A stretch of DNA of 8,464 bases from a virus (lineage: Duplodnaviria > Heunggongvirae > Uroviricota > Caudoviricetes): the IMG/VR virus record IMGVR_UViG_2667527591_000013; one strand, written 5' to 3'. Below the pieces are notes generated by a model that did no database searches, was not told the origin of the DNA, and saw only the letters and a list, made by a program, of their open reading frames with translations. The first letter of the stretch is position 1. Every line of letters starts with the position of its first letter. Positions 1,758 to 8,464 of the stretch are shown in pieces. The position numbers and the translations under genes were made by a program.

Positions 1758-2501
1758 ATGACAGAGACAGAATCAGCGATTCTGGCGCATGCCCGGCGGT
1801 GTGCGCCTGCGGAGTCGTGCGGCTTCGTGATAAGCACGCCGGAGGGGGAGCGGTATATCCCTTGTGTGAATATTTCCGCAGAGCCGGAGGCGTATTTTCG
1901 TATCGCACCGGAAGACTGGCTGCGGGCAGAGATGCAGGGGGAGATTGTGGCACTGGTCCACAGTCATCCCGGTGGACTGCCCTGGCTGAGCGAGGCCGAC
2001 CGGCGGCTGCAGATAAAAAGCGCACTGCCCTGGTGGCTGGTCAGCCGGGGTGACATTCACAAATTCCGCTGCGTTCCGCACCTGACGGGACGGCGCTTTG
2101 CGCACGGGGTGACGGACTGTTACACGCTGTTCCGGGATGCATACCATCTGGCAGGCATTGATATGCCGGATTTTCATCGCGGGGATGACTGGTGGTGCAA
2201 CGGTCAGAACCTTTACCTGGACAATATGGAGGCAACGGGCTTTTACCGGGTGCCCCTGTCCTCTGCACTGCCGGGCGATATCCTGCTGTGCTGCTTCGGC
2301 GCATCGGTGGCTAATCATGCCGCCATTTACTGCGGCAACGGTGAGCTGCTTCACCATCTGCCTGAACAGCTGAGTAAACGGGAGAGGTATTCCGAAAAAT
2401 GGCAACGACGAACGCATTCTGTCTGGCGTCACCGCCACTGGCACGCATCTGCCTTCACGGGGATTTACAACGATTTGGCCGCCGCCTCAGCCTGTATGTG
2501 A
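1758..2501 (+). CDS. K: Tail tip assembly protein K (JAMM/MPN plus NlpC/P60 domains)
   Basis: 247-aa ORF starting 5 nt after the L stop. It contains the JAMM motif HSHPGGLPWLSEAD (H-x-H-x7-S-x2-D) and an NlpC/P60-like Cys (GVTDCYTLF) with a downstream His (NHAAIY). It matches lambda K from memory (EIVALVHSHPGGLPWLSEADRRLQ, HKFRCVPHLTGRRF). The true start may be internal. It overlaps I by 103 nt in another frame, as lambda K and I overlap. Confidence 0.9.
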   Translation: MTETESAILAHARRCAPAESCGFVISTPEGERYIPCVNISAEPEAYFRIAPEDWLRAEMQGEIVALVHSHPGGLPWLSEADRRLQIKSALPWWLVSRGDIHKFRCVPHLTGRRFAHGVTDCYTLFRDAYHLAGIDMPDFHRGDDWWCNGQNLYLDNMEATGFYRVPLSSALPGDILLCCFGASVANHAAIYCGNGELLHHLPEQLSKRERYSEKWQRRTHSVWRHRHWHASAFTGIYNDLAAASACM

Positions 2502-3079
2502 ACACGGCAGCGGAAGCCATCCGCGCACTGTCGATGCAGGTGCCGGGCTTTCGCCGTCAGATGAACGAAGGCTGGTACCAGATACGCATTGCCGGTGAGG
2601 ATACGGCACCGGAGGCGGTGTATGCCCGCCTTCACGAACCACTGAGTGAGGGAACGGTTATCCATATTGTGCCGCGACTGGCCGGGGCCGGAAAGGGAGG
2701 ACTGCAGATTGTGCTGGGGGCGGCAGCCATCGTGGGCTCTTTCCTCACTGCCGGTGCCTCGATGGCGTTATGGGGTACAGCCCTGAGTGCCGGCGGTTTT
2801 TCTGCCACCACGATGCTGTTTTCACTGGGGGCCAGCATGATTCTGGGTGGTGTGGCCCAGATGCTGGCCCCGAAGGCAAAAACACCGGATTACCGCGCAA
2901 CGGATAACGGCAGACAGAACACGTATTTTTCGTCACTGGACAACATGATTGCCCAGGGTAACCCGATGCCGGTGCCTTACGGGGAAATGCTGGTTGGCTC
3001 CCGCCGTATATCCCAGGACATCAGTACCCGTGATGAAGGCGGGTGCGGAAAGGTCGTGGTTATCGGGCGGCAGGGGTAA
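2399..3079 (+). CDS. I: Tail tip assembly protein I
   Basis: 226-aa ORF. Motifs ARICLHGDLQRFGRR, GWYQIRIAG, VIHIVPRLAGAGKGG, FSLGASMILGGVAQMLAPKAKTP and NTYFSSLDNMIAQGN parallel lambda I as recalled. The hydrophobic Gly/Ala-rich central segment is typical of this protein. Confidence 0.9.
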   Translation: MATTNAFCLASPPLARICLHGDLQRFGRRLSLYVNTAAEAIRALSMQVPGFRRQMNEGWYQIRIAGEDTAPEAVYARLHEPLSEGTVIHIVPRLAGAGKGGLQIVLGAAAIVGSFLTAGASMALWGTALSAGGFSATTMLFSLGASMILGGVAQMLAPKAKTPDYRATDNGRQNTYFSSLDNMIAQGNPMPVPYGEMLVGSRRISQDISTRDEGGCGKVVVIGRQG

Positions 3080-3085
3080 AAAGAA

Positions 3086-3180
3086 TAAAAAAATCCCGCA
3101 GTGATCGCGGAGCTGCGGGGACAGACAAAGATTAGAGTTAAGGAGTTGTTTTTGTTACTCGGGCAAAAAAACACTAACGC
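3086..3180 (-). ncRNA. Candidate small RNA (about 95 nt), antisense, in the I-J intergenic insert
   Basis: It lies between the candidate promoter and the minus-strand terminator. There is no start codon with an SD on the minus strand in this interval. The predicted RNA contains a second internal hairpin (GTTTTT...AAAAAC) and a CUCCUU stretch. Ends are approximate. Confidence 0.3.
3095..3119 (-). terminator. Intrinsic terminator, minus-strand oriented, immediately after the I stop codon
   Basis: Perfect 7-bp stem CCCGCAG(3095-3101)/CTGCGGG(3113-3119) with an 11-nt loop. On the minus strand the stem is followed by ATTTTTTTATTCTTT (complement of + 3080-3094). On the + strand the downstream sequence is not T-rich. 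Confidence 0.6.
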
Positions 3181-3186
3181 AGCGAA

Positions 3187-3214
3187 ATTATACGCGCCAC
3201 AGTCAGTTTGTGAA
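3187..3214 (-). promoter_or_regulatory. Candidate sigma70 promoter on minus strand (-35 TTCACA, 16-bp spacer, -10 TATAAT)
   Basis: The minus strand reads TTCACA (complement of + 3209-3214), a 16-nt spacer, then consensus TATAAT (complement of + 3187-3192). It points leftward toward the terminator at 3095-3119. Confidence 0.4.
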
Positions 3215-3286
3215 AATGTGAAGATATTCAGAATTTTTATGCCATTACCGGTTTTTACCAACAGGATTATCGGTGGACATGAAAGA

Positions 3287-3322
3287 AAACCCCGGTATCT
3301 GCTGATACCGGGGTTTCTCTTT
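3287..3322. terminator. Bidirectional hairpin terminator in the I-J intergenic insert
   Basis: Perfect 12-bp inverted repeat AAACCCCGGTAT(3287-3298)/ATACCGGGGTTT(3305-3316) with a 6-nt loop CTGCTG. The + strand continues TTTCTCTTT; the minus strand continues TTTTCTTTC. Confidence 0.6.
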
Positions 3323-3419
3323 AGCATGGCAGAAATGTGTTTCATGCTTTTCGGGCGAAGGATATCCGACTTCTGTACGGAATGGCAAGTGGCGGTTAAT
3401 TTATTCAGGGGAAGGCTGT

Positions 3420-6400
3420 ATGGGAAAAGGTGGCGGTAAGGCACACACGCCTCGTGAGGCGAAGGATAATCTCAAATCCACGCAGATGATGAGCGTGATT
3501 GATGCGGTTGGTGAGGGACCGATAGAAGGCCCGGTGAAGGGACTGCAGAGTATCCTGGTGAACAAAACCCCGCTGACGGACACGGACGGTAATCCCGTGA
3601 TACACGGTGTGACGGCGGTCTGGCGCGCCGGGGAGCAGGAGCAGACACCACCGGAAGGCTTTGAGTCCTCCGGAGCTGAAACTGTACTGGGCGTGGAAGT
3701 GACGAAGGCAAAACCGGTGACGCGCACCATTACGTCCGCGAACATTGACCGCCTGCGGGTTACCTTCGGGGTGCAGTCACTGGTGCAGACCACGTCAAAG
3801 GGTGACCGAAACCCGACATCCGTCCGCCTGCTGATTCAGTTACAGCGTAACGGTAACTGGGTGACAGAAAAGGATGTCACCATTAACGGCAAGACCACCT
3901 CGCAGTTTCTGGCGTCGGTGATTCTGGATAATCTGCCTCCCCGTCCTTTTAACATCCGGATGGTCCGGGAGACGGCGGACAGCACCACGGACCAGTTGCA
4001 GAACAGAACACTCTGGTCATCGTACACCGAAATCATCGATGTGAAACAGTGCTACCCGAACACGGCGATTGTGGGGCTGCAGGTGGATGCGGAGCAGTTC
4101 GGTGGTCAGCAGATGACGGTGAACTACCATATCCGCGGTCGCATCATCCAGGTGCCGTCAAACTATGACCCGGAAAAACGCACCTACAGCGGTATCTGGG
4201 ACGGCAGTCTGAAACCGGCATACAGCAACAACCCGGCCTGGTGCCTGTGGGACATGCTGACTCACCCGCGCTACGGGATGGGAAAACGCCTGGGGGCGGC
4301 GGATGTGGACAAGTGGGCGCTGTATGCCATCGGGCAGTACTGCGACCAGACGGTCCCGGATGGTTTCGGGGGCACAGAGCCGCGGATGACCTTTAATGCG
4401 TACCTGGCACAACAGCGTAAGGCGTGGGACGTTCTCAGTGATTTCTGCTCGGCGATGCGCTGTATGCCGGTATGGAACGGCCAGACGCTGACGTTCGTTC
4501 AGGACCGCCAGTCGGATGTGGTGTGGCCGTACACGAACAGCGATGTGGTGGTGGATGATAACGGCGTGGGGTTCCGCTACAGCTTCAGTGCCCTGAAGGA
4601 CCGGCACACGGCGGTGGAGGTGAATTACACCGACCCGCAGAACGGCTGGCAGACCTCCACGGAACTGGTGGAAGACCCGGAAGCCATACTGCGCTACGGA
4701 CGCAACCTGCTGAAGATGGATGCGTTCGGCTGCACCAGTCGCGGTCAGGCCCACCGTGCCGGGCTGTGGGTGATAAAGACAGAACTGCTGGAAACGCAGA
4801 CGGTGGATTTCACACTCGGGTCACAGGGGCTGCGGCACACACCGGGTGACATTATTGAAATCTGTGATAACGACTATGCCGGGACTATGACCGGCGGACG
4901 TATCCTGTCCATTGATGCTGCCACCCGCACCCTGACGCTGGACCGTGAGGTTACCCTGCCGGAGACAGGTACATCGGCGGTGAACCTGATTAACGGCAGC
5001 GGTAAGCCGGTGAGTGTGGACATCACCGCACACCCCGCGCCGGACCGGATACAGGTCAGTACCCTGCCTGATGGTGTGGAGACATACGGTGTGTGGGGAC
5101 TCTCCCTGCCGTCACTGCGCCGTCGCCTGTTCCGCTGTGTCTCCATCCGGGAAAACACGGACGGCACCTTTGCCATCACGGCGGTGCAGCACGTACCGGA
5201 AAAAGAAGCCATTGTGGATAACGGAGCCCGCTTTGAGCCGCAGTCAGGCACCCTGAACAGCGTTATCCCACCGGCAGTACAGCACCTCACGGTGGAGGTG
5301 AGCGCAGCTGACAGCCAGTATCTGGCGCTGGCGAAATGGGACACGCCGAGGGTGGTGAAGGGCGTGCGCTTCAGTCTGCGCCTGACCAGTGGAAGCGATG
5401 AGAACAGCCGCCTGCTGACCACCGCCATCACTGCCGATACGGAGCACCGTTTCAGTGGCCTGCCTCTCGGGGAATACACCCTGACGGTCAGGGCGATAAA
5501 CAGCTACGGCCAGCAGGGCGAACCCGCCACCACCACGTTCCGGATTAACGCACCGGCAGCGCCTGCCGGTGTTGAACTGACGCCGGGGTATTTTCAGATA
5601 ACGGCAGTCCCGAAACTGACCATTTATGACCCGACGGTGCAGTTTGAGTTCTGGTTTTCGGAGGCAAAAATTGCAGACGCCGCACAGGTGGAAACCTCTG
5701 CCCGTTATCTGGGGACCGGCAGTCAGTGGAGTGTCTCCGGTCCGCACATTAAGCCCGGAAAGGATTTCTGGTTTTATGTGCGCAGCGTCAACCTGGTGGG
5801 TAAATCTGCTTTTGTGGAAGCCAGTGGACGGGCGAGCAATGATGCTGCGGGCTATCTGGAACTTTTCCGGGAAAAGATAGGAAAAACGCATCTGGCAGAG
5901 GCGCTGTGGGCAGAGATTGACAACAGTCAGCTGAAGGACGAGATGGCGGAAATGCAGACCACCATCACAGAAACCCGCAATGAAATCACACAGACGGTCA
6001 GTAAAACGCTGGAGGACCAGAGCGCCACCATACAGCAGATACAGCGCGTGCAGAAGGACACAAATGATGACCTTGCTGCACTTTACATGCTGAAGGTACA
6101 GAAAACAAAAAATGGCATACCCTATGTTGCCGGTATTGGAGCGGGGATTGAGGATACTGATGGCCAGCCCCTGAGCAACATACTGCTGCTGGCTGACCGT
6201 ATTGCGATGATTAACCCGGAGGACGGCAACACCACGCCGTTATTTGTGGCGCAGGGGAATCAGTTGTTCATGAACGATGTGTTCCTGAAGCGGCTGTTTG
6301 CGGTGAGTATCACCTCGTCCGGCAATCCCCCTACGTTCTCCCTGACGCCGGAAGGCAGGCTGACGGCCCGTAATGCGGATATCAGCGGACATATCAGTGC

Positions 6401-6950
6401 GAACTCGGGCACGCTGAATAATGTCGTGATAGCGGAGAACTGTACCATCAAAGGTACTCTGAGAGCGGAAAATATCATTGGCGATGTGGTGAAAACGCAC
6501 AATGTCAGTCTTCCTGATCTCAGGGCTGCAGGGGAGCACAGACACGCGACAGAACGAACGGTTACTGTCATTGATGATCAGTCGTTTGACCGGAATATTG
6601 TTATCCCGCCGGTTTTTTATTCCGGTATTATCTACAAAGGAAGTGATGGTGACGGTGCGACCTCAATCTGTACGCTGACGGTGAGTGTGAATGATCGGGT
6701 GGTGTTCAGCAAAACCTCATCCATCGGTACCAGGCGTACGTCAGGGGGATACCCCGTTCAGGAAGACACCATATATCCCGGGTCATCCACTCCGTTCAGC
6801 TATTTCATGAGGATGGCGTCAGGGGGAGGTGATGTCAGGATCAAGTTCCGGATTGAGGTCATCTATTATGGAACTGCACCGGGTTTTATGACCACAGGGA
6901 TACAGATCACAACGATGAAGGCGTCAGCTTCAGGATTTGTGGAAAGTTAA
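3420..6950 (+). CDS. J: Central tail fiber / host specificity protein J (tail tip attachment protein)
   Basis: 1176-aa ORF with GGAAGG SD 6-7 nt upstream of the ATG. It is colinear with lambda J (1132 aa) through the N-terminal and central regions ([22 protein letters not shown]..., [76 protein letters not shown]...NADISG...[14 protein letters not shown]). The last 150 or so residues (from about nt 6496) diverge from lambda's LamB-binding C-terminus. Confidence 0.95.
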
Positions 6951-7271
6951 TCCCGGACGATCGTGATTGCCGGAAGGAGACAAAAACCGCACAGTATGCG
7001 CGGGTGCCTTTGGCTGATGGCCGGAGGGAACACCTGAAAGCCTGATGTGAAAAGGCCCCGAGTCAACTTCAATGTTAACCCGAGGCCCTGATCCGTCTAT
7101 CTTAAGCAAGTGGCAGGTTAGCGCCTCTCCGTAATAAGGAGCAAGTGCTGTGTCGCAAAAACCACCGTGATTTGTATCACTGTAGTGCTCATTATCTGGA
7201 TCACCCACCGTTCACTGTGTGAATTCCGGTTCCGGATAGCACCTTTTTAATCCTGTAAACCACGATTTTTA

Positions 7272-7306
7272 CCGCAGACCGGGAAACCGGCACTGCGGTT
7301 TTTTTT
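7272..7306 (+). terminator. Rho-independent terminator ending 14 nt upstream of the stf-like start codon
   Basis: Stem CCGCAG(7272-7277)/CTGCGG(7293-7298) enclosing an inner CCGG-GAAA-CCGG hairpin, followed by eight T's (7299-7306). Confidence 0.7.
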
Positions 7307-7319
7307 ATGGGGAAAATCT

Positions 7320-8464
7320 ATGACAGTCAGAATATCGGGCGTGCTGAAGGACGGCACCGGGAAGCCGGTACCGGGATGCACCATTGAACTGAAAGCCCTG
7401 CGCACCACGGAGACAGTGATTGTCACCACGGTGGCGCAGGGGCAGCCGGGGGAAACCGGCAGTTACAGTTTTGATGTGGAGCCGGGGTGGTACCGGGTGA
7501 CGCTGAACACGGAAGGGTACGCCCCGTCGTATGTGGGTGACATTCTGGTGAAGGCGGATTCTGAGCCGGGAACGCTGAATAAATTTCTGATGGAACAGGA
7601 TGAGGCGCAGTATTACCCGAAAGCGCTTGCAGAGCTGGAAGCGGTGGCAGCGGAAATCCTGAAGCGTGCTGAAGCGTCGGCGGCGAGTGCAGAGGAAGCG
7701 AAGAAACGGGCAGAGAATGCCCGGGGACCGGCGGGCGAGAAGGGGGACACAGGTCCACAGGGTGCCACAGGGGCAAAGGGACCAGCCGGGGCAACGGGGG
7801 CGGTCGGACCAAAAGGTGAGCCGGGGCCAAAGGGAGAACGGGGAGAAACAGGTCCACAGGGACCGAAGGGCGATAAAGGTGACCCGGGCGGACCGCCGGG
7901 GCCGAAAGGTGACACCGGCCCACGTGGAGAGGCCGGACCACCCGGACCACAGGGTCCGGCAGGGCAAACCGGCCCGAAAGGGGATAAAGGTGAACCCGGC
8001 GCAACAGGTCCGGCAGGTCCCGCAGGCCCTCGGGGAGAAACCGGCCCCGCAGGTCCTGCGGGTCCCGCAGGCAGTGTCGCCAGTGTTCCGGATGCCAGCA
8101 CATCACAGAAAGGTGTTGTACAGCTGAGCAGCGATACCAACAGCGATGATGAAACAAAAGCGGCAACCCCAAAGGCTGTGAAAGCGGTAATGGCAGAAGT
8201 GCAGGCAGCAAAAACGAAGGCAGAAGAGGCAGCAACCCGGGCAGCAGTCCCCGGACCGAAGGGGGACAGGGGGGAACCTGGCGCACCTGGTGCAGTGGGG
8301 CCAGCAGGCCCACGGGGACCGGCTGGTGCAGCTGGTCCCAAAGGTGATGCAGGCCCGGCAGGCCCCGCAGGAAAGGATGGTACCGCCGGAGCGGAAGGTA
8401 AGGCAGGTCCGGCAGGGCCACGAGGTGAAAGGGGACCAGCGGGGGCACAGGGTGTTCCGGGGCC
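7320..8464 (+). CDS. Side tail fiber protein (Stf-like) with collagen-like Gly-X-Y repeats; 5' partial, runs off the window end
   Basis: ATG at 7320 with GGGGA SD 6 nt upstream. The open frame reaches the window end without a stop, so it is absent from the supplied ORF track. The N-terminus [26 protein letters not shown] parallels lambda Stf ([17 protein letters not shown]...). The conserved motif [30 protein letters not shown] is present, flanked by two Gly-X-Y blocks. Confidence 0.85.
7725..8072 (+). repeat. Collagen-like Gly-X-Y triplet repeat block 1 within the stf-like gene
   Basis: About 37 consecutive G-X-Y triplets ([19 protein letters not shown]...[10 protein letters not shown]) with a single one-residue interruption at [10 protein letters not shown]. 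The DNA shows a 9-bp periodicity of GGN-CCN-NNN. Confidence 0.85.
8253..8464 (+). repeat. Collagen-like Gly-X-Y triplet repeat block 2 within the stf-like gene (continues past window end)
   Basis: [70 protein letters not shown], uninterrupted to the window end. Confidence 0.85.

Follow-up and report, generated by a model that had tools for sequence, protein, structure and literature searches.

Gene J and its surroundings

The window analysed here, a stretch of 8,464 nucleotides (nt), is the entire contig CCCK01002554.1 of assembly GCA_000944435.1. It encodes a holin, a DUF1327 protein, a fusion open reading frame (ORF) of lysozyme and tail protein L, the proteins K, I and J, and the start of a side tail fibre protein. 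The order L, K (JAB/NlpC-P60; C40 peptidase), I, J and side tail fibre is the same in E. coli NCTC9112. The features of J on which this study centres are the following.

3420–6950, + strand: gene J, tip attachment (central tail fibre) protein, 1176 residues (ORF, phmmer and Pfam)
6402–6497, + strand: last beta-prism stalk layers, ending at the 5′ recombination junction (conserved in relatives)
6498–6950, + strand: receptor-binding domain (RBD) cassette, residues 1027–1176 plus the stop codon, a divergent Ig_GpJ_C domain
6951–6961, no strand: 3′ edge of the exchanged cassette (similarity to phage 1720a-02 is back at 6962)

J aligns with lambda J (PDB 8iyk) over residues 1–1099 (phmmer E = 0) and contains the full domain series of the lambda-type tip attachment protein J (TipJ/gpJ), with FNIII-A_GpJ, Phage-tail_3, Ig_J, Ig_J_second, Phage_Tail_Tip and Ig_GpJ_C all above the Pfam cut-off.

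The fusion ORF (715–1752) encodes 345 residues, in which a lysozyme N-terminus is joined near nt 1145 to the C-terminus of L (Phage_lysozyme and Phage_tail_L). All related loci begin to match only at nt 1145, which lies 91 nt inside L of NCTC9112. The join is either the trace of a ~20 kb deletion from Rz to M, the prophage being defective, or a chimera created in a highly fragmented draft assembly, and the window's own prophage may be defective. A defective prophage of E. coli JNEC-KY204 (NZ_AP045180.1, 3089630–3103995) has its lysis genes ~2.5 kb from L-K-I-J, parted from them by IS1 and by fragments of TonB-family and porin genes. Deletions between the lysis and tail genes have evidently arisen more than once in this prophage group, with differing junctions.

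At 340 nt, the intergenic gap between I and J (3080–3419) is unusually long; two terminator-like sequences lie within it, each a hairpin with a T-run (~3085–3120 and ~3287–3320). Part of this region (nt 3244–3420) is without counterpart in NCTC9112, and the gap may represent a small moron or an RNA element; Rfam models at gathering thresholds gave no match in the window. On the other side of J, a hok/gef-like region (6962–7300) takes the place of lom, ahead of the gene for the side tail fibre. A Hok/Gef family protein is annotated there in related genomes; the window retains only a short Hok-like ORF (7167–7250; ...CITVVLIIWITHRSLCEFRFR...). The side tail fibre gene (7320–8462) is cut short by the end of the contig; its annotation in NCTC9112 reads 'prophage tail fiber N-terminal domain-containing protein'. 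Two long ORFs on the opposite strand (7423–8448 and 7613–8341) are Pro/Gly-rich and look like shadows of this gene.

The RBD as a discrete recombination cassette

A global alignment of J with lambda J gave 69% identity for residues 1–1026 and 23% for residues 1027–1176. By segment, the identities are as follows.

Residues 1–830: 73% identity to lambda J
Residues 831–870: 10% identity, 28 extra residues
Residues 871–1026: 62% identity
Residues 1027–1176: 23% identity

A preliminary description of this DNA had J colinear with lambda J up to the motif GDVVKT and divergent from there to its end. The motif occupies residues 1021–1026 (nt 6480–6497), H1027 begins at nt 6498, and the final residues quoted there are the true C-terminal end of J. 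Colinearity holds at the level of 69% identity over residues 1–1026, except for residues ~831–870, where the identity is 10% and the protein is 28 residues longer. The latter stretch (nt 5910–6029) belongs to the alpha-helical shaft of J, which is four heptads longer than that of lambda. Since this stretch maintains 89–95% DNA identity in other E. coli prophage J alleles, those alleles appear to share the long shaft. The helical shaft of lambda flips upon receptor binding (PMC11101478).

The edges of the divergent segment were located by comparing the nucleotide sequence of the window with five other J alleles.

Lambda: similarity ends at nt 6484; resumption not found
E. coli G8: ends at nt 6493, resumes at 7273
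Phage 1720a-02: ends at nt 6494, resumes at 6962 (12 nt past the J stop)
Fels-1: ends at nt 6497; resumption not found
E. coli SCU-104: ends earlier, at nt 6443, and resumes at 7293

Similarity stops at nt 6484–6497 in four of the five alleles (at 6443 in SCU-104), which agrees with the start of divergence given in the preliminary description, and thus the boundary drawn there is a real mosaic junction. Together with the drop in protein identity, these breaks establish that the divergence is real and sharply bounded. In phage 1720a-02, similarity is zero over 6495–6961 and the identity is 86.6% from 6962, and an exchange can be confined to the segment that encodes the RBD. The 5′ junction lies inside a conserved stalk-coding stretch ending in GD(V/I)VK, and the 3′ junction directly follows the stop codon. 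The stalk-coding stretch (6402–6497) is conserved in lambda, A8, 1720a-02, Fels-1 and SSU5-like J. The RBD is therefore a discrete recombination cassette set into a lambdoid J backbone of otherwise ordinary E. coli type. Residues 960–1132 of J have been reported to recombine independently, as a specificity module (Maddamsetti et al. 2018, PMC6646904).

Fold and variable loops of the RBD

The C-terminal segment had first been described as not resembling the C-terminus of lambda J. The identity is indeed low, and no high-identity alignment of the tail to lambda J was obtained (23–24%). Absence of resemblance, however, was overstated. BLASTP with the RBD only matched lambda residues 1000–1132 with 24% identity (E = 3e-9), and PF12421 (Ig_GpJ_C), which Pfam describes as the C-terminal receptor binding domain of tip attachment protein J, matched with 46.5 bits (cut-off 26.2). 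This match spans only profile positions 15–77 of 135 because the alignment breaks at an insertion; positions 13–131 are matched by a sister sequence from Salmonella (see below). In alignments the RBD is colinear with those of lambda, 434, Fels-1 and 1720a-02 and with database fragments, with which it has the framework motifs RTVTV-DD-FDR-I, C-L-V-N, M-x-G-G-G and a C-terminal K...G in common.

Structure prediction of the domain, as suggested in the preliminary description, gave an Ig-like beta-sandwich similar to the solved receptor-binding domains of J. The model is an AlphaFold2 (AF2) monomer built from a 94-sequence alignment that includes the sister fragment, with a pLDDT of 79.9 and strand blocks mostly at block-mean pLDDT values of 85–97. 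A single-sequence AlphaFold model was unusable (pLDDT 42) and was dropped. The top four Foldseek matches in the PDB are 8xcj (lambda gpJ713-LamB) and 8xck (the closed lambda fibre), with E-values of ~1e-12 (best 1.1e-12), and 9wca and 9wcb (A8 gpJ713, closed and OmpC-bound), with E-values of ~2e-11 to 4e-11. Their query-normalised TM-scores are ~0.6, and the next match has an E-value of 3e-5. The segment is thus a remote homologue of the lambda receptor-binding domain and not something unrelated: the first observation was right in substance and exact in position. It was also right to see here the receptor-determining module of J; the sharp DNA breaks mark a unit exchanged as a cassette, and the Foldseek matches and Pfam family are those of receptor-binding domains.

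Compared with the lambda domain (~1000–1132; 8xcj and 8xck), the window RBD has the same Ig_GpJ_C assignment, predicted Ig-like fold, framework motifs and position at the end of a colinear J. It differs by its 23–24% identity, a gain of 19 residues at 1077/78 and the loss of D1107–I1108. L1–L4, the four loops at the bottom of the Ig-like lambda RBD, penetrate the LamB trimer (PMC11101478). Among natural homologues of J, indels concentrate at four hotspots, namely lambda residues 1012, 1048–1049, 1077–1078 and 1107, and residues 1012 and 1107 were required for the laboratory shift of lambda to OmpF (PMC6646904). The corresponding loops are predicted in the window as follows.

6507–6539, + strand: predicted distal loop L1, residues 1030–1040, in the region of the lambda 1012 hotspot (model and alignment)
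6627–6659, + strand: predicted distal loop L2, residues 1070–1080, near the lambda 1048–1049 hotspot (model and alignment)
6729–6794, + strand: predicted distal loop L3, residues 1104–1125 (alignment and anchors)
6870–6899, + strand: predicted distal loop L4, residues 1151–1160, at the lambda 1107 hotspot (model and alignment)

L1, between model strands E30-35 and E47-56, is one residue longer than in lambda. L2 follows model strand E73-75 and has gained one residue behind J 1069, a few positions to the N-terminal side of lambda 1048. L4, between model strands E145-156 and E167-173, is shorter by two residues, which removes lambda D1107–I1108. The largest change is in L3, where 19 residues (nt 6735–6791) are inserted between lambda V1077 and Q1078. 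Between fixed anchors, this segment measures 27 residues in the window, 22 in the Salmonella sister and 8–9 in 86 of the 89 family members that cover the L3 site. The insertion itself is modelled with low confidence (pLDDT 52–57).

The framework of the domain is thus conserved and its four variable loops are rebuilt, the third being about three times the usual length. In the model, the variable positions lie between strands and alternate with the conserved loops DDQSFDR, an N-D hairpin and ASGGGD. From this strand topology and the alignment to the hotspots, we infer that the variable loops probably form the distal, receptor-facing set. The window agrees with the published specificity module in having a C-terminal recombining module with indels at or near all four hotspots, and its 19-residue insertion at 1077–1078 is extreme among the 89 relatives measured (cf. 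PMC6646904).

Relatives and probable receptor of the RBD

The RBD allele was found in three of 5426 complete E. coli genomes, the sole detectable matches even in the 'distant' mode of blastn. Its DNA is 100% identical in strains NCTC9112 and LZSFT34 and 94.9% identical in FHI_NMBU_10. In NCTC9112, it belongs to a prophage whose annotated head and tail genes are all intact and whose tail module looks complete. An RBD of 100% amino-acid identity is also encoded, on the same J backbone (96–99% nucleotide identity), by three IMG/VR contigs and one metagenome contig. An assembly artefact as the source of the divergent tail was ruled out by the 100% identity in two complete genomes and four other contigs.

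The RBDs of the window and FHI_NMBU_10 differ by 12 synonymous and 11 non-synonymous substitutions (dN/dS 0.27), compared with a dN/dS of 0.11 for the rest of J. The 11 replacements fall in L1 (three), L2 (two), L3 (three), the end of the strand before L3 (one) and the C-terminal tail (two). Small as these numbers are, the pattern appears to be that of a working domain with its loops evolving fastest.

None of 50,697 phage records reaches 60% identity to the RBD. The best phage matches, Fels-1 and 1720a-02, are ~42% identical with the stalk included and 28–30% for the RBD only. The closest relative found, with 56–57% identity over all 150 residues, is the J protein of an SSU5-like phage-plasmid of Salmonella enterica (NZ_CP014707.1, equivalent to IMGVR_UViG_2880329822_000001, with J at 1807–6438 of the latter). 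There, the sister domain ends a J of 1543 residues encoded on Salmonella enterica plasmids of 101–108 kb. This J has ~75% DNA identity to phage-plasmid SSU5 over the first 86% of the gene and is divergent at the tip. Common to the SSU5-like and window domains are an enlarged L3 (22 residues in the former) and the conserved pattern SGY..V..D...PG.S.PFSYF; the 1543-residue length, the unrelated siphovirus backbone and the host genus of the SSU5-like J are unlike those of the window. The occurrence of this sister on Salmonella phage-plasmids indicates that the long-L3 RBD lineage has moved between E. coli lambdoid prophages and SSU5-like phage-plasmids.

A scan of one genome per GTDB species gave no relative of the RBD, and a word-indexed protein search with the RBD alone returned only its own fragment cluster. 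An exhaustive search of 1.84 billion representatives gave nine matches, two of them below E = 1e-10; full-length J proteins are probably represented there by cluster heads with other C-termini, and this count was therefore not used as a measure of rarity, which rests on the DNA and tblastn searches. We conclude that the allele is rare but real and conserved.

The RBD was compared with J domains whose receptor is known.

Lambda RBD: receptor LamB; 23–27% identity to the window
434 RBD: receptor OmpC; 29% identity
A8 RBD: receptor OmpC; ~30% identity over stalk plus RBD
1A2 RBD: receptor OmpC of EDL933; weak tblastn match to machine-read 1A2 DNA with frameshifts

Identity to every compared RBD of known receptor is 23–34%, so nothing can be transferred by homology; this bears out the preliminary description, in which the receptor could not be named from the sequence, and the comparison suggested there with J proteins of known receptor (lambda, 434, A8 and 1A2) gave no close match. 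Close similarity to the LamB-specific lambda/Phi21 type (lambda residues 1000–1132, with the loop residues around 1012 and 1107) is absent, the window RBD being 23% identical with indels in all four loops and D1107–I1108 deleted. Close similarity to the OmpC-specific domains of 434, A8 and 1A2 is likewise absent.

The C-termini of A8 and 1A2 gpJ share their fold with that of the window, and they too come from J proteins of natural E. coli prophages. 1A2 ends with a common-type C-terminus (...ISDLLVVVMKKATAGITIS), without a counterpart of the long insertion. Both use OmpC (PMC11338833), and both work once fused to lambda J at residue 964 (Brodel et al., Nature 2024, PMC11338833), which is the type of swap experiment proposed in the preliminary description. 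Identity of the window RBD with either OmpC-binding domain was considered and rejected: A8 is ~30% identical, 1A2 gives a weak match only, and the DNA motifs of the window RBD are absent from the machine-read, frameshifted 1A2 DNA.

Similarly diverged J C-termini have been shown to use OmpC, namely those of Gifsy-1 (PMC12312913) and of A8 and 1A2 (PMC11338833). The C-terminus of Gifsy-1 J is reportedly 18% identical to that of lambda, and the protein is reported to use OmpC in DNA ejection and BtuB and OmpX in adsorption (PMC12312913). The C-terminus of J in the Gifsy-1 (LT2) record is only 15% identical to the window, which gives no usable comparison.

Considering these data together, we think it likely that residues 1027–1176 are an intact and functional Ig_GpJ_C receptor-binding domain, borne on a cassette, with rebuilt loops, a specificity unlike that of lambda and a porin as the likeliest receptor. 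By analogy to the lambda and A8 complexes, three copies of the RBD would form the tip of the central tail fibre, and the four distal loops L1–L4 would dock onto an outer-membrane protein. Docking would splay the RBDs, and a signal passing through the beta-prism stalk and helical shaft would open the tail tip (cf. PMC11101478). The loop divergence and the precedents among other J alleles suggest that the specificity very probably differs from the LamB specificity of lambda. The view taken in the preliminary description, of a J that probably targets a receptor other than LamB, is a reasonable one with ample published precedent. The likeliest class of receptor would be a trimeric porin (OmpC, OmpF, a LamB variant or a related porin), since the solved RBD-receptor complexes and the laboratory-evolved use of OmpF by lambda involve trimeric porins. 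By the same analogy, a trimeric porin other than K-12 LamB is most likely, and is our best guess. Porin binding alone is not a rule, as Gifsy-1 J is also reported to bind BtuB and OmpX (PMC12312913).

The Gifsy-1 case lends some weight to a non-porin receptor, such as a TonB-dependent transporter (BtuB or FhuA), a small beta-barrel (OmpX or OmpA) or the LPS core, for which L3 would provide a new surface. An L3 of about three times the usual length is unique to the long-L3 clade, and this clade is common to E. coli and Salmonella elements, which would fit any conserved envelope component. We consider such a receptor unlikely, since every solved complex between an RBD of this fold and its receptor pairs an RBD trimer with a porin trimer (PMC11101478). 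The comparison with the FhuA-type tip (HK022/N15-like), in which J ends after the tail-tip fibre domain and cor lies downstream, also argues against it. HK022 uses FhuA. Its J has a lambda-like backbone up to Phage_Tail_Tip, as in the window, but is without the Ig_GpJ_C domain and is followed by cor, and it has no significant similarity to the window tail (E = 0.034). The window J has the domain, and neither cor nor an extra receptor-binding-protein gene was found after J in the window, where 6951–7319 holds only the hok-like remnant.

It is quite unlikely that the RBD still uses LamB, perhaps a divergent host allele, with the divergence reflecting an arms race on the same receptor and not a switch. 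The fold is the same as that of the LamB-binding lambda domain, and divergence alone is no bar to LamB use, because the LamB-specific GpJ tips of Drexlerviridae have little or no homology to that of lambda (bioRxiv 10.64898/2026.04.02.716166); in such cases sequence does not dictate the receptor. Single mutations are moreover able to shift Phi21 J between LamB, OmpC and OmpF (PMC11336670). Lambda and Phi21, the LamB users with a lambda-type J in the literature considered here, are in contrast 94% nucleotide-identical in their J genes (PMC11336670), compared to the 23% amino-acid identity, indels in all four loops, lost D1107 and 19 added residues at 1077/78 of the window RBD.

That the segment is decaying along with a defective prophage and no longer provides a working RBD might be read from the lysozyme–L fusion ORF, the loss of everything between lysis and L, and the hok-like remnant downstream of J, but is extremely improbable given a reading frame intact to a normal C-terminus, complete identity of the RBD in NCTC9112 with its intact annotated head and tail genes, a dN/dS of 0.27, a confidently folded domain core in the model and a sister lineage maintained on Salmonella phage-plasmids.

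Beyond the preferred reading of a functional RBD directed at a porin, the long-L3 clade might recognise a receptor so far unrecorded for lambda-type J tips, either a non-porin or a porin with no known J user, with L3 as the determinant. We regard this proposal as tentative and somewhat unlikely. If it is true, the 19–22-residue L3 would be the specificity determinant, and the long-L3 cassette would offer a module usable as it stands to retarget delivery particles based on lambda. J C-terminal cassettes have already been swapped deliberately to retarget lambda-derived DNA-delivery particles (PMC11338833). The rarity of the allele, its identity of at most 42% (with the stalk) to phage records and its outlier loop at a hotspot make it a reasonable candidate for new receptor specificities.

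Swapping of the receptor domain of J is already well known, and this allele, which leaves the understanding of J function unchanged, is a rare further case of a modular RBD family; what sets it apart is chiefly the oversized L3 loop and the presence of a sister on Salmonella phage-plasmids. The host range of lambdoid phages is determined by the C-terminal cassettes of J, and the present lineage is a clear example of one RBD occurring across two unrelated siphovirus backbones and two host genera.
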